14,154 nucleotides of DNA from NCBI GenBank assembly GCA_965233585.1, contig CBDDTI010000096.1, positions 1 to 14,154 of the forward strand, read 5' to 3'. Positions 571 through 14,154 of the stretch are shown in pieces (within the stretch, counting starts at the first letter, position 1; every line of letters begins with the position of its first letter). The notes under the pieces were generated by a model, which was given only the letters and a program-made list of their open reading frames with translations, searched no databases and was not told the origin of the DNA. The position numbers and the translations under genes were made by a program. Source of the DNA: a bacterium. GTDB lineage: Bacteria; SAR324; NAC60-12.

Positions 571-640
571 GCTTTTAACCATCCGTTTACGCATGAAAAC
601 CATCTTAAAGCGCTCTCAAACCACCTTGATGGCATCTACA

Positions 641-968
641 TTGAGCCTGTTGCAGGCTCAATCGAGCCTGTTTTCGTCTGTAATCGGCCTGCAACCGGCT
701 TGTTTTCGTCTGCAATCGGCTTGCAACAGGCTCGATCGAGCCTGTTGCAATCGAGCTTGTTGCAAGCCGATTACAGGCTCGATCGAGCCTGTTGCAAGCC
801 GATTACAGGCTCGATCGAGCCTGTTGCAAGCCGATTACAGGCTCAATCGAGCCTGTTGCAAGCCGATTACAGGCTCAATCGAGCCTGTTGCAAGCCGATT
901 ACAGGCTCAATCGAGCCTGTTGCAAGCCGATTGCAGACGAAAACAAGCCGGTTACAGGCTTGTTGCAA
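641..968. repeat. Palindromic 32-bp tandem array bracketed by 59-bp inverted repeats
   Basis: GCAAGCC recurs at 762, 794, 826, 858, 890 and 922 (period 32). The unit GCAAGCCGATTACAGGCTC(G/A)ATCGAGCCTGTT contains a 20-bp palindrome. 721-750 is a perfect 30-bp palindrome. 687-745 and 901-959 are reverse complements at 57/59 positions. Confidence 0.95.
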
Positions 969-1209
969 CATCTATTTTTCTCCATTGTCAAATTGTTCTC
1001 AATTTAAAAGCGCAAAGAAAGGTTTTGAGAATAAAAAATGTTTAAAAATTCCGTTCTTTTGCTCCAAACTCGCTCAAATGTAAAACTTTTTAACAATAAA
1101 AATGTTTAAATTCAAACTATGAAGGAGAGCGCTTAATTTAAATGTTTTACAGTTAAACCATTTCAGTATATCATTGAACCTTGTTCAGATAACACTCGCT
1201 GCAAAAATC

Positions 1210-3595: not shown

Positions 3596-4808
3596 TCATT
3601 GTTGAATTTTGGGTAGTTTTTTTTTAATGCCGAAACACAATTCCATGAACGCCTTTGTTATTTCTTCCAATCCTCTCAAAGGTACCTGGATTTTCATGAT
3701 TTTTGTCGAATATTGTTGGTTGTTTTCATTATACTGAAAAAGCATGCGGTTTAAAAGTGATCAATTTTTGCTATCAATTTTACTTACGTGTTCCTTTTTC
3801 ATGTAGATTACCGGCCAGGTCGACAATCCTCCAGCTTTTTGAATATGCCTCAAACCAGTGATTCCTACGGTCACTTGAGGATTAAGGTATACGACCTTAT
3901 ACATTGGTTTTATTGGAAGGCTAACAGTTTTTTCATCCACCTTTTTGTTCTTGATTAGTTCAATAAACTTCTTTAGTGTAGCCGGATTTATGTACATGTA
4001 CTGGAATAAAAATTTTATTATTTCTGCAATAAAATCAAGCCAAATTTAATTATCAAAACTTACGTTATCTGGCCCAAAAAAGTACGCTTCTCTTGTAGAA
4101 TGTTCTTTTTGCCATTCCACAAAATCAATGTCTCTAGTGTCAGCCATTTTTTCAGTTGTCCAATTTCGAAAAAATACTTTTTGCTCCTCTTCATTCATTA
4201 AAATTTGATACGCCATCAACGACGCACCTTCATAAACCGCGTGGTTGTTAATTTCATTTTCTAACTTCTGCATCTTCTTAATCGGATTTTTTCTTTTCTT
4301 TCCTAAAATATCTTGTGTCTGTTCGTCAAGGTCTTCATCCGTACTAATTACATTGTCATCATCAACATCATCATCATCATCATCATCGTCATTATTTTCT
4401 GAACTTTCATCGCTCGGTTGTTCTACTTCAGTTGAAGCATCATCAGAGTTGGAAGTTAACTCTTCCGCTTCCGATTCCTCAATTTCTTCAGACATGTCAT
4501 CTGATTCCGATGTTGACATGTTTTCTTTCTCTTTTTGTTTCTTTTCTAAAATGTTGATCAAAATAGCAAATAATGTTCACGTAATAAAATATAAATTTCA
4601 AATTACCTGATCTTAATTGATGTTTTTTATTTGAATTCTTCTTGGAGTTCCTAGTTTCACGTTTCTTCTTACCAATCTTTTTATCATTTTTTTCTGTCTC
4701 CTTTTTGGTCTTCTTCTTTTTCTCCTCCTGAATAATCTTATGATTGTCCTCTTTGGCATCTTTGATGCGAGAATTTAATTTTCTCTTTTTTATTGGTGAT
4801 TCCTTCAT
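3596..4808 (-). CDS. Basic/acidic nuclear protein with possible tandem PC4-like ssDNA-binding domains, 344 aa; complement(join(3596..3733,3788..4000,4064..4545,4607..4808))
   Basis: Three GT-AG introns (61, 63, 54 bp; donors GTAATT, GTAAGT, GTAAGT) fuse three track ORFs plus a fourth exon in phase (1035 nt). The protein has a Lys-rich N-terminus, an Asp/Glu tract and a globular C-terminal half. The gene model is well supported; the PC4 call is a tentative visual match. Confidence 0.8.
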
Positions 4809-5013
4809 GTTCTTTTCTTAAATGCGGGTTATTTACTCCAAACTCAAATTTATACTGACATTCAAAATAAAAATTCCATTCTTTTAAACCTTTTTAAAGT
4901 TTAATGTCTACCACCAACATGCGTTAGTTGACGCCCTAAAGGACCCAACACCGTCCATGTGAGAGGGCAAGTGTTCGATACGATCATTGAAATAAAATTT
5001 CAATTAAGAAACT

Positions 5014-5326
5014 AAGCTTGTGATCAAAAAATTTAAAAACTTAAAATGACACGAACATAAATTTTCCGTTGATTGAAGTATTTAACGGAGATTAGATGAT
5101 GTACATTGCATTGTCAACCAAGCACGTGTTCAAGGAATTTTAAAAACTCAAAATGACATGAACATAAATTTTCCGTTGATTGAAGTATTTAACAAAGATT
5201 AGATGATGTACATTGCATTGTCAACCAAGCACGTGTCCAAGGAATTTAAAAAACTTGAAATATCATGATCATAAAATTTTCATTGATTTAAGTATTAAAC
5301 TGAGATTAAATGATGCACGTTGCATC
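5014..5326. repeat. 107-bp direct repeat (two near-identical copies plus one degenerate) in a divergent intergenic region
   Basis: AACATAAATTTTCCGTTGATTGAAGTATTTAAC at 5054 and 5161, degenerate copy at 5268. CACGTG E-boxes at 5123-5128 and 5230-5235. Confidence 0.92.
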
Positions 5327-5415
5327 GAGAATCAGTGACCATAAATTTACTGTCAGAAATTTGATTGTTCAGGGTGTTGGGCAGGATTTTTCTCGTGCAG
5401 TTATTTCCTGGTGCG

Positions 5416-5501
5416 ATTGGTCTAGAAACCGTTTAAAAGTGAGCGCCTCACCGCTTAAATTTCTATAAAAGTCAGGATTTATATTTTCCATTCCGTCATT
5501 C
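5416..5501 (+). promoter_or_regulatory. Candidate RNA polymerase II core promoter
   Basis: Inverted CCAAT (ATTGG 5416-5420), TATAAAAG at 5464-5471, initiator-like TCATTC at 5496-5501, and no ATG before 5560. Confidence 0.6.
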
Positions 5502-5559
5502 CATTTTCGTTCATTTACCAAGAAAAGTCTTCTACCCCAAGTCAATTCTCAAGGTAAAA

Positions 5560-6342
5560 ATGCCTGGTCTTAACAATTCTGAATCTCGTCAAGTAATTCA
5601 TGACTCGCAAGGGTTAAGGGTTACAGTACGTATTGCTGATGATTCAACATCAAACTCTAACAACAACAACAACAACACCGCCGATGATTCAACATCGGAC
5701 CCTACAATCAATAATAATAACTCCGATGATTTGACATCGACCATCAACTCTGATGATTTAACATCAGTCTCTCCAACTGTTGTACCGATTGGACGAGGTG
5801 AGAGGTTAGCGAGACCAAATAACGTCTCAAACCCCCTTTTTGCTGGACGCGGAGTTGGACGAGGTGGGTCTGTCCGCAACACCTCAAATATTTCGAATGT
5901 CGGGCGTGGTGTTGGTCGAGGTCAACCAATTCAAAGAAATCCTCAACCATCTACTTCTGCTCCAACGGCTGGGCGGGAGGTTGGAGGCGGTGCTGGCAGG
6001 GGTGGAAGATATTTTCACCCTTACCGTCGTCCAGCAACTCAAACTTCGGCCTCTACCATAAACGGTTCTCGTTCAAGTTCCGTTATTTTTATAAACAGCG
6101 ATGGGGAAGAATTTGAGGAGGAGGAGGATTTTGATGAGACGGATTATGACTACCATTATTCTACTTGTGTCGAACATTTATTCAACAGAAGAAGAGTAAT
6201 TTTCGATATTAATGAAAGATATGCTGAGTCTTTGATTCAACGTCAAATACGATCACTTGAGCGACAAAATCTTTGGCTTCGAAATGAATGCCAAAGATTA
6301 AACACTCAATTGCAACGATGTAGGGAGTTGTTGTCTTCTTAA
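5560..6342 (+). CDS. Low-complexity protein with GRG repeats, PY-NLS-like motif, acidic patch and C-terminal leucine zipper, 260 aa
   Basis: AAAA-ATG start. GRGVGRG twice plus AGRGGR, RGGRYFHPY, EEFEEEEDFDE, and the heptad L-ERQNLW-L-RNECQR-L-NTQLQR-C. AATAAA at 6399-6404. Confidence 0.75.
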   Translation: MPGLNNSESRQVIHDSQGLRVTVRIADDSTSNSNNNNNNTADDSTSDPTINNNNSDDLTSTINSDDLTSVSPTVVPIGRGERLARPNNVSNPLFAGRGVGRGGSVRNTSNISNVGRGVGRGQPIQRNPQPSTSAPTAGREVGGGAGRGGRYFHPYRRPATQTSASTINGSRSSSVIFINSDGEEFEEEEDFDETDYDYHYSTCVEHLFNRRRVIFDINERYAESLIQRQIRSLERQNLWLRNECQRLNTQLQRCRELLSS

Positions 6343-6428
6343 GATTTTTTGAGTTCATAATGTATATATTATAAAATGTAGTCTCAAATTAATGTTAAAA
6401 TAAATTTTGATTTCAGAATTTTGTAAGA

Positions 6429-7148
6429 ATGCCGAAATCTTACGTGTGTCCCGAATGCCAAAAATCATTTGACAGAAAATCTTCTCGCGACAAACATCAT
6501 TTATTTCGTCATCGCGAAACTACAAAATCTCGAGCTCGGACCCCACTCAATCAGTCGTTTCAATGCCCATTTTGTAAGAACGAAGTAAGTTCTTTTAAAT
6601 CAAGAAAAGATTTAGTCTCACACATTGACGCTTCTCATTTAGAAAATTTAAATTATTCATTGTACAAATCCGCACTTAACGGAAAAATCAAATTTTATCG
6701 AAAACACATTTTTTCAAAAGAAACACTTCAAGGATTTGTTGCAAATAAAAAAAATAGACAAGAAATAGTTGACGTTATTTGTCACGAACTAAGTAAAACT
6801 TTTACGGTTAAAGTTGCTCTTATTTTGACAGCGGCGTATCAAATTCCTGATTTGAATTCTGCTGCAGAGAAGAAGGACATTGAACTAGATACTACCAATA
6901 TTGATGATACCTCTGATAAACCTTCTGATCAGTCGTCGCCTCAAATATTGTCCAATGATCGAGATGTTTTTGCTCTAAGAACCAGCTACATTCAATTCAC
7001 GTCTTTTGATTCATCCCGCTCGTTAAAAGGCAAAGTCCAAAAATTATTACATAATTTAGTAAATAGAGAAGAAGATTTGTTAATGAGAGGTTCTGGATGG
7101 AGATTTGAATCTTTATCTTTTAGCGATATTCAAATTACTAGCATTTGA
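6429..7148 (+). CDS. C2H2 zinc-finger plus terminal-protein-like ORF (region normally forming the N-terminus of Polinton pPolB), 239 aa
   Basis: Two C2H2 fingers (CPEC..H...H; CPFC..H....H), SALNGKIKFY, VKVALIL and EEDLLMRGSGWRFESL. The GSGW block is characteristic of Polinton pPolB N-termini. Ends TGA 7146-7148, with AATAAA at 7152 and 7187. Confidence 0.8.
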   Translation: MPKSYVCPECQKSFDRKSSRDKHHLFRHRETTKSRARTPLNQSFQCPFCKNEVSSFKSRKDLVSHIDASHLENLNYSLYKSALNGKIKFYRKHIFSKETLQGFVANKKNRQEIVDVICHELSKTFTVKVALILTAAYQIPDLNSAAEKKDIELDTTNIDDTSDKPSDQSSPQILSNDRDVFALRTSYIQFTSFDSSRSLKGKVQKLLHNLVNREEDLLMRGSGWRFESLSFSDIQITSI

Positions 7149-7200
7149 TTTAATAAACTTATTTTGTTTTATTCAAAAAAATTTCAAATAAACTTTGGAA

Positions 7201-10200
7201 ATGGATTTTATAGAAATTCCACGTGATTTAAAGAGATCTAATTGCTTGGAATGGAAAACTCGTTACGATAAATTCAATTTTCTTTATCTGTACATTAGAC
7301 ATCTTTTTCCTGAGGAAACGGTTTCCGTTGTTGATTTTCGTCAAATGCCGATAAAGTATCTTAAAAAGTTTAATATAAGAGGTTTCAAATTCCCTCTTCA
7401 ATTTTGTAATTTAAAAAAATTCTTAAATAGAAACTCCCATTTACCAATTTCAATTTCAGTTTTTTATGAGAGTGAAGGTCAAGTTTCAAAGTTAGGTTTT
7501 TTTACTAACAAAAACAACAACAGAAACAAAAACATTTTAAATTTGTTAATGATAAAATATGATCCTGAAATCTCTCTTGAAAATGAATCTCCATTTTCTC
7601 GCCTTGCAAAACCAATTCAACGCAAGAAAAAATCTTCTTGTAAAAAGATTGTCAATTGTAGTTCTAATGTCAAATTGGGTTTTTCTTCCAAGTTTAAAAA
7701 GATCAAGGATTTAAATCAACAGCACCATTTCTTTAAAATTACCAAAATCCAAGGTTTTTTGAATAATCGGGCCGGACTGTTGTCGGGTAAAAAAGCAGCT
7801 CAACAGAAGCACATCTATTGTGAAAAATGTCTGCTTCATTTTCGATCCAAATCTAAAAAAGAAAAACACGAAAACACTTGCTGTGATAAACAACGTGCTA
7901 TCTACCCAAGTAAAAATTCCTCCATAAGTTTTACCAATCATAAACATAAATTTCATGCTCCTGTTGTTGGATTTTGTGATTTTGAATGTGTACTTCAAAG
8001 AAACAAAGAACGATCTAAATGTCAACTCTGTTTAAAAACTGAGTGTTTGTGTGCTTTTCCCACCAGTGACGATATAAACGTGCATAGACCAGTGGGGTAT
8101 AGCTTGCTTTTTGTGGATTCGAATGATGAGGTATTTTTTCAAGAAGAATATGTAGGAGAGGATGCAGCCAAACATTTTTTGGATCGAATGCATTTCTATG
8201 AAAAAGTTGTTGACGAAAGAAAACAAAAATTCAGACATATTGTTAAAAATCAATCTAGTCCGCAAGAATGGCAAATGTATCAAAAAGCAAAAGTTTGTCA
8301 TATTTGTGGTGGTCAATTCAAAAAGTACTCTAGAAATTACAGAAAAGTTCTAGATCATGATCACGTGACAGGGAAAATAATGGGCGCAGCTCATTCACTG
8401 TGTAACTTGACGAGATCCGGCCCCTTTCACACACCAATTTTTTTCCACAACGCTCAAGGGTAAGAAGTCTTAATTGGGTTTATTTATTAAACTAACACAA
8501 ATTATGTACGCGTTTCAGATACGATTTGCATTTAATCGTGGAAGAGTTAAATGTTTCCAAATTTAAGCAAAATGTAAAAGTCTTAGCAAAAAACAGTGAA
8601 AAGTTTCGCACTCTTACATTGGGCAAATTTAAAATTCAAGATTCGTTAGAGCACATTTCTGGCAGTCTAGATGCACTTGTTCAAGATTTGAATCAGACCT
8701 CAAATTTTACCTTTCCCATTTTACAACAAATGGAAAGATATAAAAAAATTCCTGTTCGTCAAAAATCAAAAGCTTTAAAACTTTTAAAAAGAAAAGGCGT
8801 TTTTTGTTACGAACATTTCCAATCTTTAGAAGAGATGAAGAAAAGTCGAAACCTTCCGTCCAAAGACTCTTTTTATTCTGAATTAAACGAAGAACACATT
8901 ACGGAAGCGGATTATTCCCATGCTCAAGAAGTCTTTAAATTGTTCAAATGCAAGAATGTGGTGGATTACATGATGCTCTATTGTTCTTTAGACGTTGTTT
9001 TGCTGTGTGAAGCATTTCTTCAGTACAGGAAAATGGTTATGGAACATTTTCAATTGGATCCTGTTTATTATCTAGGTAAACTTTAATCTTTACTGTTGGA
9101 TGTATCGTAATACTAAATTTGTTCTACCTAAATTAGGAATTCCTGGCTTGAGTTTTGATGTCATGCTTATGTTCTTTCAAAATTCAGAACAAGCTAAATC
9201 AGATAATAAGCTCACATCCGAATCTGAAACCTCCAAACCCCTCGGATCATTAGATGTCTATTCCGATCCTGAAATGGAGCGTTTTTTTACAAAGGGTATC
9301 AGAGGTGGGCAAAGTTTTATCGCTCAGCGTTATGCCAAAGGGAATAGCAATCCTAGAAAAAGCGGCGATCACTTGTTATACATTGATGGTAATTTTATAC
9401 TGTATTATCTGATGAAATCATTTTTGTTATGATCCATACAATTTTTCAGCCAACAACTTATACGGGAGTATGGAAACTTTAAAATTACCAGTTTCTGATT
9501 TCCAATGGGTTTCAAAAACAGAATTTAAAAATTGGACTGCCGAAGATATTATCAACATTCCTTCGCAAGACGATACTGGATATGCGTTCGAAGTTGATTT
9601 GCATTATCCTTCTCATCTTCACCAGGTAAATCCGATCTTTGTTGTGATACGTTATTTATTGTTTTGACAAGTTACATGATATCATTTTCAGGCACACGAT
9701 CAATTTCCGCTGGCTCCGTATACAGACACGGTTTCTTTTAAACATCTATCTCCTTACAATCGCCGTTTACTGAAACATCACTGTCCTCGAGATTATAGGA
9801 ACAAAAGATACCGGAGCAAGAAATTGTTGAGCACTTTTTATGACCGAAAAAAGTACGTGGTGCATCTGGAAAACCTGCAGTACTACTTGAAAAAGGGCAT
9901 GAAGTTGCTGAAGATAAGAAGAGTCATGAAGTTTCGACAAAAAGCTTTTTTGAAGGAGTTCATCGAAAAGGTCACAAAGCTGCGATCAAATGCTCGCAAT
10001 GACTTTGAACTCCGGCTTTTTAAACTTTTTGCCAACTCTACTTTTGGAAAATTTATTGGTAAGTTTTGAGATAAGATAATTTAATGATGTTGAGATTGTA
10101 AAAGACGCAAAAGCGTAATTTGACGCAGTCCATTTTTCTGTAAAAAATGAATTTGTTAAATACTCAAACGAATTTGGGGTCATTTTTTGTATTTTTTCTT

Positions 10201-13109
10201 TAATTTTGAGGCACAAGTGCGTGGTGGTACCGGCGACAGTTGCGGCAGTACGTCCTGCCGGCACCAACCACACACTTAGCCTCATCAAAATCGTCATCTT
10301 CAGAAACATCGGCTTCGTTGGAGGGGCTGACGTCTGCGGGGATGACGTCAGCGGGGCTGACGTCGGTGGGGATGACGTTGGCGGGGATGACGTCGGTGGG
10401 GATGACGTCCGGACGACCGGCGACAAAGTCGGCGACGGAGGCGGCGGCCGTCCTGATCATCATGATCAAGCCTCTGGCAAGCCGTCTAAGACGGCCACCG
10501 CCCCACATCAGTGGTGGACGCGGCGGTGTCTCGCTCAATGGCGGGTCCGGCAGCAGCTTGAACTTCTCCTCCTCCTCCTCTTCCGTCCATTTCGCCCTCA
10601 ACACCTCGTATTTCCCCCTCCTCATCCTTCCTAACTTTACCTTGTCCATTTTCCTTTTCCTTCTCCTTCTCCTCTTCCTTCTCTAAATTTGTTTTGAATT
10701 TTCCCGCATGGTTTTGTCAATTTTAGAAAATGAATCTCCAAACCTTCACATATTAATTAGCAAATTATCTCATAAATATTCATAATATTAAATCAATATT
10801 AAATTAAAAATTCGCAAAATGAATTAATCAAGTACGCAAACTTTTGAAAAATCAATTTTTATAAAATGATGTGTTTATTTTGTAATCAAAAAGAAAAAGA
10901 AAAATGATCAAATTTAAATTTTAATTTTTTTTTGTAACTTTTCGAGCTGTAGACGGAGACCACACTGATGGAAATGCCGTTACTTGACGCACTTCTGGTG
11001 TTGGTGAAGGTTCCACGTGAGTATAGGGTTGTGGTTTAGATTTTTGTGTTGATTGTGAAGACAAATCAAATGACACGCGATGAGAGGTCTGCTTTCGTGA
11101 CTCTGACTCCGGCCTTTGTGGGACGGATTTGTACGGGGTTCGTGATGGCCAAGCAGGTGCTACGGGTCGCTCGGAAGATGCCCATGATTCTCCACCCAAA
11201 GCCGCAGAAGATGACCATGCTCCTCCAGTTTTAGTAGATGACCATGCCCCCTCAGTTTTAGCTGATGACCATGCTCCTCCGCCCACAGCCCCAGAAGATG
11301 TCCATGCTCCTCCGGTTTTAGTGGATGACCATGCTCCCCCGCCCCCAGCCCCGGTAGTAGATGCACTCTTCCACGACTCCGACCCTGATTTTTGTGGGAC
11401 GGATTTGTACGGGGTCCGTGATGGCCAAGCAGGTGCCACGGGACGTTCGGAAGATGCCCATGATCCCCCACCCAAGGCCGCAGAAGATGACCATGCTCCC
11501 GCAGTTTTAGTGGATGACCATGCCCCCTCATTTTTAGCAGATGACCATGCTCCTCCGCCCACAGCCCCAGAAGATGACCATGCTCCTCTGGTTTTAGTGG
11601 ATGACCATGCTCCCCCACTCCCGGCTCCGACAGTAGATGCACTCTTCCACGACTCCCGCTCTGATTTTTGTGGGACGGACTTGTACGGGGTCCGTGATGG
11701 CCAAGCAGGTGCCACGGGACGTTCGGAAGATGACCATGATTCCCCACCCAAGGCCGCAGAAGATGACCATGCTCCTCCGGTTTTAGTGGATGACCATGCT
11801 CCTCCGCCCCCGACCCCGGCAGTAGATGCGCTCTTCCACGACTCCGACCCTGATTTTTGTGGGACGGACTTGTATGGAGTCCGTGATGGCCAAGCAGGTG
11901 CCACGGGACGCTCGGAAGATGCCCATGATCCTCCACCCGCAGCCCCAGAAGATGACCATGCTCCCTCAGTTTTTGTAGATGACCATGCTCCCCCAGCCGC
12001 AGCCCCGGTAGAGCTACTGCCAGAAGTCGGACTTGAAGTTGCCTCCTCCTGGGCTAATTCTATTACTTTTAACCAAAAAGCTTTGCTCTTTTCCTGATCT
12101 TTTTTATCCATTTTGACTTAGTGTTTATTTTGTTGGAATTTTTGATGTCCGTTTATGTCGGGCTTTAAAAAAGGAATGATTTCAAATTGAAGTAAATTAT
12201 AGTACATTGCTAATTACAGAGGAAAATGAAATGTGATATGGGACGGCTAGTTAGCTGAGGTGATTGCGCACATAATCAATTTTCTTTATTAAATAAATCT
12301 TATTTTGCATTTCAGAAAATGTTCGAAATTACTCTGAAGTGGTCCTTTGTGGTGATGAACAGAGCTTAAGGAAAGCCAGTCTTGGTCAACACATCAACAG
12401 TTTTCAAATCATCAATGAAAACTTGGTGGCTGTCAACAAGAAGCCGGCAATAATAGAGCTCAGGAAGCCTTTAGCTGTTGGATTTTCTATTTTGGAATTG
12501 TCCTAGTTGTTTATGTACAGATCGTATTATGACACGATTCAACAACATTTTGGCGAAAAAAATGTGTCTTTATGTTTCTCAGACACGGATTCTTTTCTTT
12601 TAAAAGTAAGATGCAACAACTTGGAAAGGGAAATGAAAAAATTGGAGCACATATTTGATTTTTCAAAGTACCCCAAACAACATCCTCTTTTCGATGACAG
12701 TAGAGCCAATCAGCTTTTTTATTTCAAAGACGAACTAAAAGGCAGAGCTGCTATTACTCACTTTATAGGCTTACATCCAAAATGTTATTCTATGAAAATT
12801 ACTGATTTTTCAGACAAAAACAAAACAGAAGAAAAGAAAATTTGCAAAGGTTTAAAAAAATCTAGCATAAAAAAGCAATTAACCTATAACGATTACAAAA
12901 AATGTCTAAAACGTGCTGTTCTAATTTACAAATCTTTCAAAAACTTAAGATCAAAGAATCATAAAATTCGGACATGTTTTCAAAGAAAGATTGCGTTATC
13001 AGCAATGGATTCCAAAAGACACATTTTGAATTGCGGATATCACACTTTATCACTAGGAAATTGTCTTATTGTCAACAACAAATCATCTAAATGCCCTATT
13101 TGTAAATGA
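7201..13109 (+). CDS. polB: Protein-primed family B DNA polymerase, 1134 codons, six exons, one in-frame TAG (12504-12506) in this copy; join(7201..8459,8519..9075,9137..9388,9450..9625,9692..10058,12316..13109)
   Basis: Splicing restores split motifs exactly: ExoII FHNAQG|YDLH, LDPVYYL|GIPGLSFD, motif A YID|ANNLYG, LHQ|AHDQFPLAP and motif B KLFANSTFGKFI|ENVRNY. Also present are ExoI CDFEC, ExoIII YCSLDV, GIRGG, motif C SDTDS and an endonuclease VII/HNH-like insert CHIC...DHDHVTG...AHSLCN. Introns are 59, 61, 61, 66 and 2257 bp, all GT-AG. Total 3405 nt. Confidence 0.93.
10200..10649 (-). CDS. Nested antisense hypothetical protein, 149 aa (possibly longer at the N-terminus), with DV(I/S)P(T/A) repeats and a C-terminal CxxC..HH motif
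   Basis: AAA-ATG-G start at 10649 within a GC-rich island whose limits match the ORF. Contains six 5-aa repeats and CRNCRRYHH; the stop overlaps ATTAAA. Other frames are also open over this GC-rich stretch, so the frame choice is inferred. Confidence 0.6.
   Translation of the reverse strand: MDKVKLGRMRRGKYEVLRAKWTEEEEEEKFKLLPDPPLSETPPRPPLMWGGGRLRRLARGLIMMIRTAAASVADFVAGRPDVIPTDVIPANVIPTDVSPADVIPADVSPSNEADVSEDDDFDEAKCVVGAGRTYCRNCRRYHHALVPQN
10323..10410. repeat. 15-bp tandem repeat, six copies, each with GGGG and TGACGT
   Basis: GGGG(A/C)TGACGT starts at 10323, 10338, 10353, 10368, 10383 and 10398. Confidence 0.93.
10921..12111 (-). CDS. Nested antisense Ser/Gly/Trp-rich repeat protein, 396 aa
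   Basis: CAAA-ATG-G start, unique N- and C-termini around the repeats, TAA stop, and AATAAA on the minus strand at 10874-10879. Repeat periods are all multiples of 3. Confidence 0.75.
   Translation of the reverse strand: MDKKDQEKSKAFWLKVIELAQEEATSSPTSGSSSTGAAAGGAWSSTKTEGAWSSSGAAGGGSWASSERPVAPAWPSRTPYKSVPQKSGSESWKSASTAGVGGGGAWSSTKTGGAWSSSAALGGESWSSSERPVAPAWPSRTPYKSVPQKSERESWKSASTVGAGSGGAWSSTKTRGAWSSSGAVGGGAWSSAKNEGAWSSTKTAGAWSSSAALGGGSWASSERPVAPAWPSRTPYKSVPQKSGSESWKSASTTGAGGGGAWSSTKTGGAWTSSGAVGGGAWSSAKTEGAWSSTKTGGAWSSSAALGGESWASSERPVAPAWPSRTPYKSVPQRPESESRKQTSHRVSFDLSSQSTQKSKPQPYTHVEPSPTPEVRQVTAFPSVWSPSTARKVTKKN
11105..11993 (-). repeat. Hierarchical coding repeat: four large units (spacing 276, 276, 189 bp) containing 27-33 bp GAWSS subunits
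   Basis: GTGATGGCCAAGCAGGTGC starts at 11142, 11418, 11694 and 11883. ERPVAPAWPSRTPYKSVPQ occurs 4 times and GAW(S/T)S 14 times. Confidence 0.93.
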
Positions 13110-13172
13110 ATAAAACATATTGTTACTTTTATTTAAGAAAAAATTTTTAAATATTTTTCAAAAACTAACAAA

Positions 13173-13868
13173 ATGGATGGTTTTGATTTAAGGTTCAGTA
13201 TTCCTTCCAACATGTTAATTGTTGGCCCAACATCGAGTGGAAAAACAACGTGGCTTAAACATTTAGTGGTTGGTAGGCATGAATATTTTGCAACTCCGCC
13301 AGAAACAATGTTGTTGTTCTACAAAGAACCACAAAAAGCTTATGAATACATGGAAGATAATATGAATCGAGACAAACGTTCAAACTCTCGTTTTCCAACA
13401 TTTCGTAAATTTAAAAGTATTCCAAATTCGATTGAAGAACTAAAAGATATTTTGGAATCATATCCAAGAAAAATGCCCAAATTAGTTGTTTTTGATGATT
13501 ATATAGACGATGTTGGACAAATATTAAAACATTTTTTTACGGTTTTGACTCATCACTACAATTGTTTCACCGTTTTTCTGTGTCAAAATTTATTTGATAA
13601 AAAAGGTGATTTGCGGACATTAAGCATAAACACTAAATATATGGTTCTTTTTAACAATCCTCGGGACAGAAGTGCGGTTGCGCATTTGGCTAAACAAATT
13701 TTCCCCGGACGAGTCGGAATTTTAAATAAAGCATACAGGGAAGCTGTTAACGGTCGAAGTCACGGATATCTCCTTCTAGATTTCCATCAACAACAAGACG
13801 ATAAAGTCAGAATTCGAAGCAACATTTTTCCGTACGAGGGACTGATGAAAGCTTACGTTACCGTTTAA
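13173..13868 (+). CDS. Genome-packaging ATPase (A32/FtsK-HerA superfamily, Polinton type), 231 aa
   Basis: Walker A GPTSSGKT and Walker B LVVFDD, then THHYN...CQNLF, RTLSINTKYMVLFNNPRD, LAKQIFP, GYLLLD and RIRSNIFP, as in Polinton ATPases. Intact and intronless. Confidence 0.93.
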   Translation: MDGFDLRFSIPSNMLIVGPTSSGKTTWLKHLVVGRHEYFATPPETMLLFYKEPQKAYEYMEDNMNRDKRSNSRFPTFRKFKSIPNSIEELKDILESYPRKMPKLVVFDDYIDDVGQILKHFFTVLTHHYNCFTVFLCQNLFDKKGDLRTLSINTKYMVLFNNPRDRSAVAHLAKQIFPGRVGILNKAYREAVNGRSHGYLLLDFHQQQDDKVRIRSNIFPYEGLMKAYVTV

Positions 13869-13916
13869 AGGATTTTCATATCTATTTAAGAAAAATAAAA
13901 AATTGTAACTGTCAAA

Positions 13917-14154
13917 ATGTCTAAAACATTAGGAAAAGCTAGTTCACTTTTTTATGTAATAAAAAAATTAAAACATCAGGATTGTGCCAATTTTTTAAGT
14001 CATTTGGACGATCGCAGAGTTGAATTGCTTTGTCGTATATTACATTACGTGTTGAACGGTGACTTGCCCATACATGGCAAAGTACGAACACGTCTTCAAA
14101 AAAGATAAGAGCTCATTTGTCAGAATTTAGACGTCTTGCTGCACCGCTGCGTCG
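13917..14154 (+). pseudogene. Small basic Polinton-type protein downstream of the ATPase, apparently frameshifted; runs off the window
   Basis: LLCRILHYVLNGDLPI resembles the 'ICE..LN.L.GNIP' block of small basic proteins next to Polinton ATPases. Adding one A to the A6 run at 14098-14103 removes the TAA and gives QKKIRAHLSEFRRLAAPLR, open to the window end. Confidence 0.6.

Follow-up and report, generated by a model that had tools for sequence, protein, structure and literature searches.

A conserved candidate 5′ splice site in the leader of a Maverick/Polinton-like element and a possible spliced route to its zinc-finger gene

Retroviruses carry a major splice donor in the 5′ leader of their RNA, the unspliced form giving gag-pol and the spliced form env, and adenoviruses join a common leader to alternative acceptors, as in the tripartite leader of the major late unit and the E2 leader. 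Adenoviruses and Mavericks have the gene types of the type B DNA polymerase (polB), protease, ATPase and capsid in common. How the tightly packed genes of Maverick/Polinton elements are expressed is hardly known, and the listings and abstracts covered by our literature search contained no paper mapping Maverick/Polinton transcripts or reporting leader splicing in them. Here we describe the 14,154 nucleotide (nt) contig CBDDTI010000096.1 (the window, meaning this whole stretch of DNA), which from position ~470–500 onward belongs to a Maverick/Polinton-like element of ~24 kb and covers its left 13.7 kb. Its rightward gene array opens with a TATA box, a leader free of ATG codons and a candidate 5′ splice site shortly before the first gene (gene 1), which is followed by a zinc-finger gene and polB. 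Splicing from this leader to an acceptor at 6416 (junction 5553/6417) may skip gene 1 and bring the zinc-finger start codon to the front, a reading that we lean to tentatively, without regarding it as probable.

The original prediction for this locus held that one promoter at 5464 and one shared leader serve three genes, with unspliced RNA giving gene 1, an acceptor before 6417 giving the gene that starts at 6429, and an acceptor before 7124 giving polB. Direct reading of the sequence found every motif on its list in place (Table 1). The region of the zinc-finger gene and polB is present in ~24–27 further copies in the same assembly; family A has 11 copies including the window, 95–100% identical to the window, family B has 3 and family C has 11, and the distant families D (9 copies), E (3) and F (2) were found by tblastn. 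Counts out of 25 copies refer to families A–C.

The predicted leader does end in a donor 6 bases before the gene-1 ATG at 5560, and 5472–5559 contains no ATG. The donor sequence AAG/GTAA (the slash marks the exon–intron boundary) was present in 24/25 copies, and was not found in the remaining one, C112; it stood 6–15 nt before the gene-1 ATG in 23/25, and 46 nt before the next ATG in a decayed copy (C288a). In all 24 donor-bearing copies the distance from TATAAAA to the donor was 87–90 nt and the leader was free of ATG. An initiator-like TCATT was kept ~30–34 nt after the leader TATA box, and transcription is predicted to start near A5498; the same TATAAAA-to-TCATTC layout recurs upstream of a TFIIB-like gene of the element. 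By count alone the donor is not above chance, as AAGGTAA was seen once on the forward strand of 5400–14154 with 0.9 expected. GGTAA occurs seven times on that strand, at the five polB donors, at the leader site 5553 and at 7786. When representatives of the three families A–C are compared, only the leader site and four polB donors have GGTAA at the same position, and every other GGTAA is private to a family. The surroundings have diverged, with the gene-1 protein only 36–39% identical between families A and C and the leader 53–65%. No AG lies between the leader donor and the gene-1 ATG in families A–C, so the donor closes no 5′ untranslated region (5′ UTR) intron there.

The acceptor before 6429 was found as TTTCAG, 12–13 nt before the zinc-finger ATG, in 25/25 copies. 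Together with the poly(A) signal AATAAA of gene 1 it forms the conserved block of the spacer between gene 1 and the zinc-finger gene, with 72–94% identity versus 33–62% for the indel-rich remainder. TTTCAG occurs seven times on the forward strand of 5400–14154, including four polB acceptors and the site at 6411, and the only positions at which families A–C all have TTT[CT]AG are 6411, 7118 and two polB acceptors. In family D the acceptor TTTTTCAG lies 29 nt before the zinc-finger ATG, and in family F TTTCTAG lies 85 nt before it; both are strong, neither is followed by an ATG ahead of the gene start, and the spacer offers neither of them a donor at a workable distance. The acceptor at 6416 is likewise without a local donor to pair with; its natural partner would be the leader donor.

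The polB gene shows what splice sites look like in this element. Removal of its five GT..AG introns leaves a single frame, apart from one stop, and between families A and C the exons are 78–89% identical with gaps in multiples of three, whereas the four short introns are 55–67% identical with indels, their GT and AG being kept. As these introns are real, the host spliceosome processes the transcript. The polB donors read G/GTAA and 4/5 acceptors read TTTCAG; the acceptors have only 7–9 pyrimidines in 12 positions, and pyrimidine-tract scoring was therefore dropped as a criterion for acceptors. Judged from the sequences, the leader donor and the 6416 acceptor are conserved beyond neutral drift and resemble the splice sites of polB.

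Families D, E and F, which represent further, independent lineages, each have one GTAA[AG] in the leader, ahead of the gene-1 ATG and, in D and E, after a TATA-like box, and an acceptor 1–8 nt before that ATG. The predicted intron of family D carries a large indel between subfamilies and has conserved ends, that of family F contains an ATG that would otherwise disturb translation, and in the C93 subfamily of family E the donor reads AAG/GTAAGT. The ancestral state looks like a plain 5′ UTR intron of gene 1. As in ordinary cellular 5′ UTR introns, donor and acceptor in these three families both lie upstream of the first-gene ATG, 59–213 nt apart, whereas families A–C have no acceptor in the 6–15 nt between donor and ATG; their donor is without a nearby partner acceptor, yet it has been retained.

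Table 1. Features of the window, with predicted leader introns of families D–F (slash, exon–intron boundary)
Feature	Position	Strand	Remarks
Reverse-transcriptase fragments, long interspersed nuclear element (LINE) type	3–561	minus	
32-nt tandem and inverted repeats	620–970		terminal repeat region
Three 107-nt tandem repeats	5029–5349		between leftward and rightward gene arms, just 5′ of TATA box
TATA box TATAAAAG of rightward gene array	5464–5471	+	
Initiator-like TCATTCC	5496–5502	+	34 nt after TATA box; ATTC...CATT block kept in A, B, C
Predicted ATG-free leader exon	5498–5553	+	~56 nt; 5′ end predicted
Candidate 5′ splice site AAG/GTAAAA	5551–5559	+	GT at 5554–5555; 6 nt before gene-1 ATG 5560
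Gene 1	5560–6342	+	260 amino acids (aa); RGG-type repeats; C-terminal coiled-coil or zipper-like end
TGTATATATTATAAAAT	6361–6377	+	TATA-like boxes at 6363 and 6370, or UGUA-type upstream element of gene-1 poly(A) site
AATAAA, gene-1 poly(A) signal	6399–6404	+	kept in A, B, C as one block with acceptor
Candidate 3′ splice site TTTTGATTTCAG/	6405–6416	+	2 nt after AATAAA; 12 nt before zinc-finger ATG 6429
Second donor-like site TTT/GTAAGA	6423–6428	+	6 nt before zinc-finger ATG; mirrors gene-1 layout
C2H2 zinc-finger protein gene	6429–7148	+	239 aa; C-terminal motif REEDLLxRGSGWRF
Acceptor-like CTTTATCTTTTAG/ inside zinc-finger open reading frame (ORF)	7111–7123	+	78 nt before polB ATG
Spacer before polB	7149–7200	+	AATAAA at 7152 and 7187 in window copy
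polB exon 1	7201–8459	+	includes HNH / endonuclease VII-like domain
polB intron 1	8460–8518	+	59 nt, GT..AG
polB exon 2	8519–9075	+	
polB intron 2	9076–9136	+	61 nt
polB exon 3	9137–9388	+	
polB intron 3	9389–9449	+	61 nt
polB exon 4	9450–9625	+	
polB intron 4	9626–9691	+	66 nt
polB exon 5	9692–10058	+	Pfam DNA_pol_B_2
polB intron 5	10059–12315	+	2257 nt
polB exon 6	12316–13109	+	
AATAAA overlapping polB stop codon	13109–13114	+	
TATA-like TATTTAAG	13130–13137	+	43 nt before ATPase ATG
A32/FtsK-type packaging ATPase gene	13173–13868	+	weak Pfam match
TATA-like TATTTAAG	13883–13890	+	34 nt before next ORF's ATG 13917
Family D leader			TATA-like TATTAAAA, 109 nt to donor ATC/GTAAGT; acceptor CTTTCTAG/ACA-ATG; predicted intron 213 nt
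Family E leader			TATA-like TATATAAC, 118 nt to donor AAG/GTAAGC; acceptor TTTTTTTAG/ 8 nt before ATG; predicted intron 59 nt
Family F leader			no TATA-like box matched; donor AAG/GTAAAG; acceptor CTGATCAG/G-ATG; predicted intron 89 nt

We propose that the TATA box and the initiator-like sequence would start an RNA whose short leader ends in a working 5′ splice site between 5553 and 5554; the balance tips slightly towards this donor being used at all. In families D, E and F it would close the short 5′ UTR intron before gene 1. In families A–C, where the nearby acceptor is missing, gene 1 and its poly(A) signal at 6399 would instead lie inside an optional intron of 863 nt (5554–6416). RNA that retains this intron would be cut at the gene-1 poly(A) site and yield the gene-1 protein, and RNA spliced from 5553 to 6417 would lose both gene 1 and the poly(A) signal, so that the zinc-finger ATG comes first. 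Poly(A) signal and acceptor lie within 18 nt, and the two outcomes would probably compete. If this is true, the overlap would be a compact switch between the first gene and the replication genes. Other routes of entry would be offered by the TATA-like boxes that stand before the zinc-finger gene, before the ATPase gene and before the ORF that follows the latter.

The layout resembles the retroviral leader in its ATG-free stretch and its candidate 5′ splice site just ahead of the first ORF, splicing from which would (as proposed here) bring a downstream ATG to the front. Unlike a retrovirus, this is a DNA element, and the optional intron would contain a poly(A) signal belonging to the skipped ORF, so that the messenger RNAs would have no common 3′ end. 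With adenoviruses the element shares an upstream TATA promoter, candidate alternative acceptors before ORFs and several poly(A) sites on one strand; it differs in that the downstream genes have TATA-like boxes of their own, only the acceptor at 6416 is supported outside coding sequence and most ORFs have no acceptor. Skipping of ORFs by splicing would, if true, be common to these elements, to adenoviruses (counted as their evolutionary relatives) and to retroviruses. A wider version, in which the clade runs a virus-style programme where the leader donor, and in some families a second donor, skips ORFs and an intronic poly(A) site to reach both the zinc-finger gene and polB while TBP-like and TFIIB-like proteins of the element drive its TATA promoters, seems to us rather unlikely.

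Families A, B, E1 and E2 carry the second donor-like site, TTT/GTAAGA ahead of the zinc-finger start codon (in C93 it reads GTAAGT and adjoins the ATG), and families C, D and F lack it. This site could serve a route to polB, which we note as a lead only. Other products of leader splicing were considered and set aside. Fusion of gene 1 to the zinc-finger protein was rejected because family D has no open frame leading into the zinc-finger ATG; initiation within gene 1, giving a shortened product, is contradicted by the protein itself, which has a single Met; and a 6-nt micro-exon (6417–6422) between acceptor and second donor was judged unrealistic.

Several observations weigh against splicing from the leader to the zinc-finger gene. 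Copies within a family are recent duplicates, and the counts out of 25 therefore rest on ~3 lineages rather than on 25 independent tests. The donor in families A–C could be a relic of the 5′ UTR intron seen in D–F, or a U1 binding site used without splicing. Family E has only a weak ...ACGAG/ATG before the zinc-finger gene, and its spacer of ~200 nt is free of ATG, as a long 5′ UTR from a local start would be. Instead of an acceptor, TTTCAGAAT could be an initiator, or the CA cleavage site 11 nt after AATAAA, and in families A, C and D a TATA-like TATATATT stands 58–73 nt before the zinc-finger ATG, which may accordingly have its own promoter. An intron of 863 nt is also long for a host whose introns measure ~60 nt here, though polB intron 5 has 2257 nt.

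Alternatively, each gene may have a compact TATA-like or AT-rich promoter of its own just upstream, in many cases within the gene before it or that gene's 3′ end, perhaps read through the TBP-like and TFIIB-like proteins, with GGTAA in the leader a relic or U1 site, TTTCAG at 6411–6416 a cleavage site or initiator, and TTTTAG at 7118–7123 merely coding; we consider this quite possible, if doubtful on balance. TATA-like boxes, which are motifs only, do lie before gene starts. On the forward strand of 5000–14154 the pattern TAT[AT][AT]AA[AG] occurs five times, three of them 34–96 nt before gene starts, and TATA[AT]A[AT] also five times, three of them 59–96 nt before gene 1 or the zinc-finger gene. 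TATTTAAG appears twice, before the ATPase gene and before the next ORF, in each case 29–31 nt before a TCA, and in the complete sister copy TATAAAAA lies 60 nt before an ORF of 583 aa and within the coding sequence of the integrase, from which that ORF is separated by only 6 nt. At a background of 0.10–0.17 per 100 nt, boxes at most 100 nt upstream were present for 9/23 ORFs in family A and 14/22 in C, with ~3 expected, and for 6/18 in D, without enrichment in E (5/23) and F (1/22); some spurious ORFs enter these counts, and the choice of stretches for families C–F was arbitrary. Some of the boxes in A and C fall within the preceding ORF. These boxes speak against the single promoter of the original prediction. 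Its argument that polB has no room for a promoter of its own is likewise unsound here, since the box inside the integrase ORF makes promoters within upstream genes likely. Local promoters would also suit the presence of the TBP-like/TFIIB-like pair in six families, the conserved spacer before polB and the ATG that follows 7124 in 11/25 copies (see below). They would leave unexplained why GGTAA stands exactly before the gene-1 ATG in three families despite a diverged leader and gene 1, and would not account for the strong acceptors found ahead of the zinc-finger ATG, with no donor nearby, in families A, B, C, D and F. The distance from TATATA to TTTCAG, moreover, varies from 40 to ~175 nt between families, a poor fit to a TATA–initiator pair, these patterns pick up no TATA-like box for polB in family A, and in family D polB starts 2 nt after the zinc-finger stop.

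The three-gene scheme of the original prediction draws on all the evidence for the donor and the 6416 acceptor. Under a strict rule (at least 10 pyrimidines in 12 positions, then YAG) the site at 7123 is the only acceptor in 5160–7500, and it is kept in families B and C, but in this host the pyrimidine rule is uninformative, the polB acceptors themselves reaching 7–9/12. The leader donor and the 6416 acceptor were conserved in sister copies, and the third site, kept in families A–C, lies in coding sequence: TCTTTTAG at 7116–7123, present in 25/25 copies, encodes Ser-Phe-Ser in the conserved tail of the zinc-finger protein, so the conservation of 7118–7123 says little, and in the distant families D–F the closest acceptor-like sequences fall on different codons. 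The stretch from 7124 to the polB start was expected to be free of ATG; this is so in the window (7124–7200) and in 14/25 copies, while the other 11 carry an upstream ATG there. The claim that each ORF has its own AATAAA is backed by conservation for 6399, kept in families A, B and C, but not for the two before polB, the one at 7152 occurring in 5/11 copies of family A and 0/14 of B and C and the one at 7187 in 14/14 of A and B and 0/11 of C. Between the zinc-finger gene and polB there is thus no conserved poly(A) signal. The polB ATG is conserved in all families and follows the zinc-finger stop by 2 nt in D, 18 in E, 52 in A and 79 in F. With no conserved poly(A) signal and the 2-nt gap in D, a polB-specific messenger RNA needs an internal start or splicing, which is in favour of the scheme, and some special route to the expression of polB is needed. 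The spacer before polB is 77–83% identical between families, as conserved as coding DNA, which suggests a local control element rather than a plain spliced 5′ UTR. An acceptor for polB at 7123 is possible but weak, and we give the junction 5553/7124 a low probability. With TATA-like boxes upstream of other genes, and no YAG acceptor before the ATG of the ATPase gene and later ORFs, the scheme as a whole appears improbable; the interpretation of the original prediction is partly supported.

A polycistronic RNA whose acceptors receive a trans-spliced leader from a separate spliced leader (SL) RNA, as in nematode or tunicate operons, would account for the order AATAAA, 2 nt, TTTTGATTTCAG, 12 nt and ATG, for acceptors that precede a number of ATGs by 0–29 nt in families C, D and E, and for the spacers of 2–8 nt elsewhere in the element. 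There is, however, a conserved cis donor upstream, and an ORF of 486 aa, the integrase and the ORF of 583 aa have no acceptor before their ATG. The Rfam SL1 model gave no match in the 12 Mb mixed assembly, a result that is uninformative as control genomes also gave none. We regard trans-splicing as highly improbable. The close spacers were seen in the complete sister copy, C579, where co-oriented ORFs lie only 2–8 nt apart (element coordinates 13838/13841, 18524/18533 and 20024/20031) with no acceptor or obvious promoter between them.

Returning to splicing from the leader to the zinc-finger gene, we searched for its junctions in other sequences. Six sequencing runs of unknown kind, from two studies and none of them recorded as RNA, matched the locus. 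The contigs of four of them, compared over 5200–10100, contained no joint of 5553/6417 or 5553/7124; they bridge polB introns 1, 3 and 4 unspliced, and have no bearing on RNA. One contig that ends at 7123 was dismissed as evidence of splicing, its end being explained by a C/T difference between copies at 7124. Another (5889–6514) reads from gene 1 past its poly(A) signal and into the zinc-finger ORF with no intron removed, and the loose end abutting 5889 resembles what we take to be a SMART-type cDNA or amplification adapter (the kind of library is not on record). A search of the assembly for processed copies gave no match to the 28-mers of the window junctions and none to an intron-less polB junction, with six matches for the unspliced control. 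An alignment of the zinc-finger protein found no relative in viral_contigs, metagenome_contigs or genome_contigs, and the leader pattern gave 0 matches in metagenome_contigs. In the protein database there were 72 proteins related to the zinc-finger protein, most of them derived from ENA metagenome assemblies, and no long polB (at least 736 aa) related to exon 1, which would have indicated spliced transcripts.

The product of the gene starting at 6429, taken by the original prediction for a possible terminal protein, is a C2H2 zinc-finger protein with two fingers and a conserved C-terminal motif, and nothing tested points to a terminal protein; in each of the six families its gene is the immediate upstream neighbour of polB. 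The gene-1 protein had no Pfam and no PHROG match and is 36–59% identical to its counterparts in families B and C. Behind its stop codon TGTATATA follows in families A–D, with variants in E and F, and the TATA-like box at 6370 is present in only 3/11 copies of family A.

The TBP-like and TFIIB-like genes were observed outside the window, adjacent and both on the forward strand, at C579:17576–19016. The TBP-like protein matched Pfam TBP (E 3.7e-18) and the TFIIB-like protein a zinc ribbon (E 1.9e-7), and the pair occurs in all six families, with 27–41% identity in the distant ones. The pair suggests an element equipped with transcription initiation factors of its own; our literature search found no report of TBP-like or TFIIB-like genes in Polintons, and the pair may matter more than the finding from which this analysis started.

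The window is eukaryotic DNA within an assembly filed as prokaryotic (12 Mb, 747 contigs, of which the window is C96; completeness 92%, contamination 2%), as is seen from the LINE-type reverse-transcriptase fragments, the spliceosomal introns and the dozens of copies of at least six Maverick families. The complete sister copy (C579:496–24382) has 23,887 nt and terminal inverted repeats at 496–1075 and 23814–24382, 96% identical over 580 nt; the window carries the left terminal repeat region only. The ~24 kb length, the 580-nt terminal inverted repeats and the many copies per genome are those of a Maverick/Polinton, as are the protein-primed type B DNA polymerase, and the rve integrase with chromodomain; an A32/FtsK-type ATPase and an adenovirus-type protease would fit as well, on weak matches. 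In C579 the integrase matched Pfam rve with E 2.8e-9, in addition to a chromodomain, and its gene lies beyond the end of the window; the match to Peptidase_C5 (adenovirus-type cysteine protease) was weak and below cut-off (E 0.0047). The candidate ORFs for double jelly-roll major and minor capsid proteins, of 583 aa and 449–480 aa, had no Pfam or PHROG match. The ATPase match to Pox_A32 was weak (E 7.3e-4, 19.5 bits against a cut-off of 22.8); the nearest Atlas clusters scored 0.98, with Pox_A32 on 41–52% of cluster members and mixed taxa comprising Nematoda, Arthropoda, Mollusca and viruses.

The polB product matched DNA_pol_B_2 on exon 5 (E 4.8e-6, 26.2 bits against a cut-off of 25.8), and residues 352–407 of exon 1 form an HNH/endonuclease VII-like domain (Pfam E 8.8e-6; PHROG endonuclease VII E 2.4e-7). 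One study describes an HNH domain as common to a class of polB that occurs in Polintons of nematodes and oomycetes (PMC10748475), which the present polB resembles in this respect. The element differs from the known Mavericks/Polintons in having a polB split by five spliceosomal introns, one with an antisense ORF, a conserved C2H2 zinc-finger gene directly upstream of polB, and TBP-like and TFIIB-like genes in all six families. The window copy of polB has an in-frame stop at 12504–12506 that is absent in 30/30 other copies aligned there; polB is therefore broken in the window, whereas gene 1 and the zinc-finger gene are intact. Intron 5, which in family C is only ~1.0–1.2 kb, carries in the window an ORF of 396 aa at 10921–12111 on the minus strand, GC-rich (55–58%), with 276-nt repeats and a product rich in Gly, Ala, Trp and Ser that had no family match. 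The minus-strand ORFs 4497–4808 (Lys-rich) and 4046–4576 (acidic) are joined in frame by a GT..AG intron of ~62 nt, which, taken from a sister copy and the frames of the window, reads CAG/GTAATT ... ATTTTAG/A.

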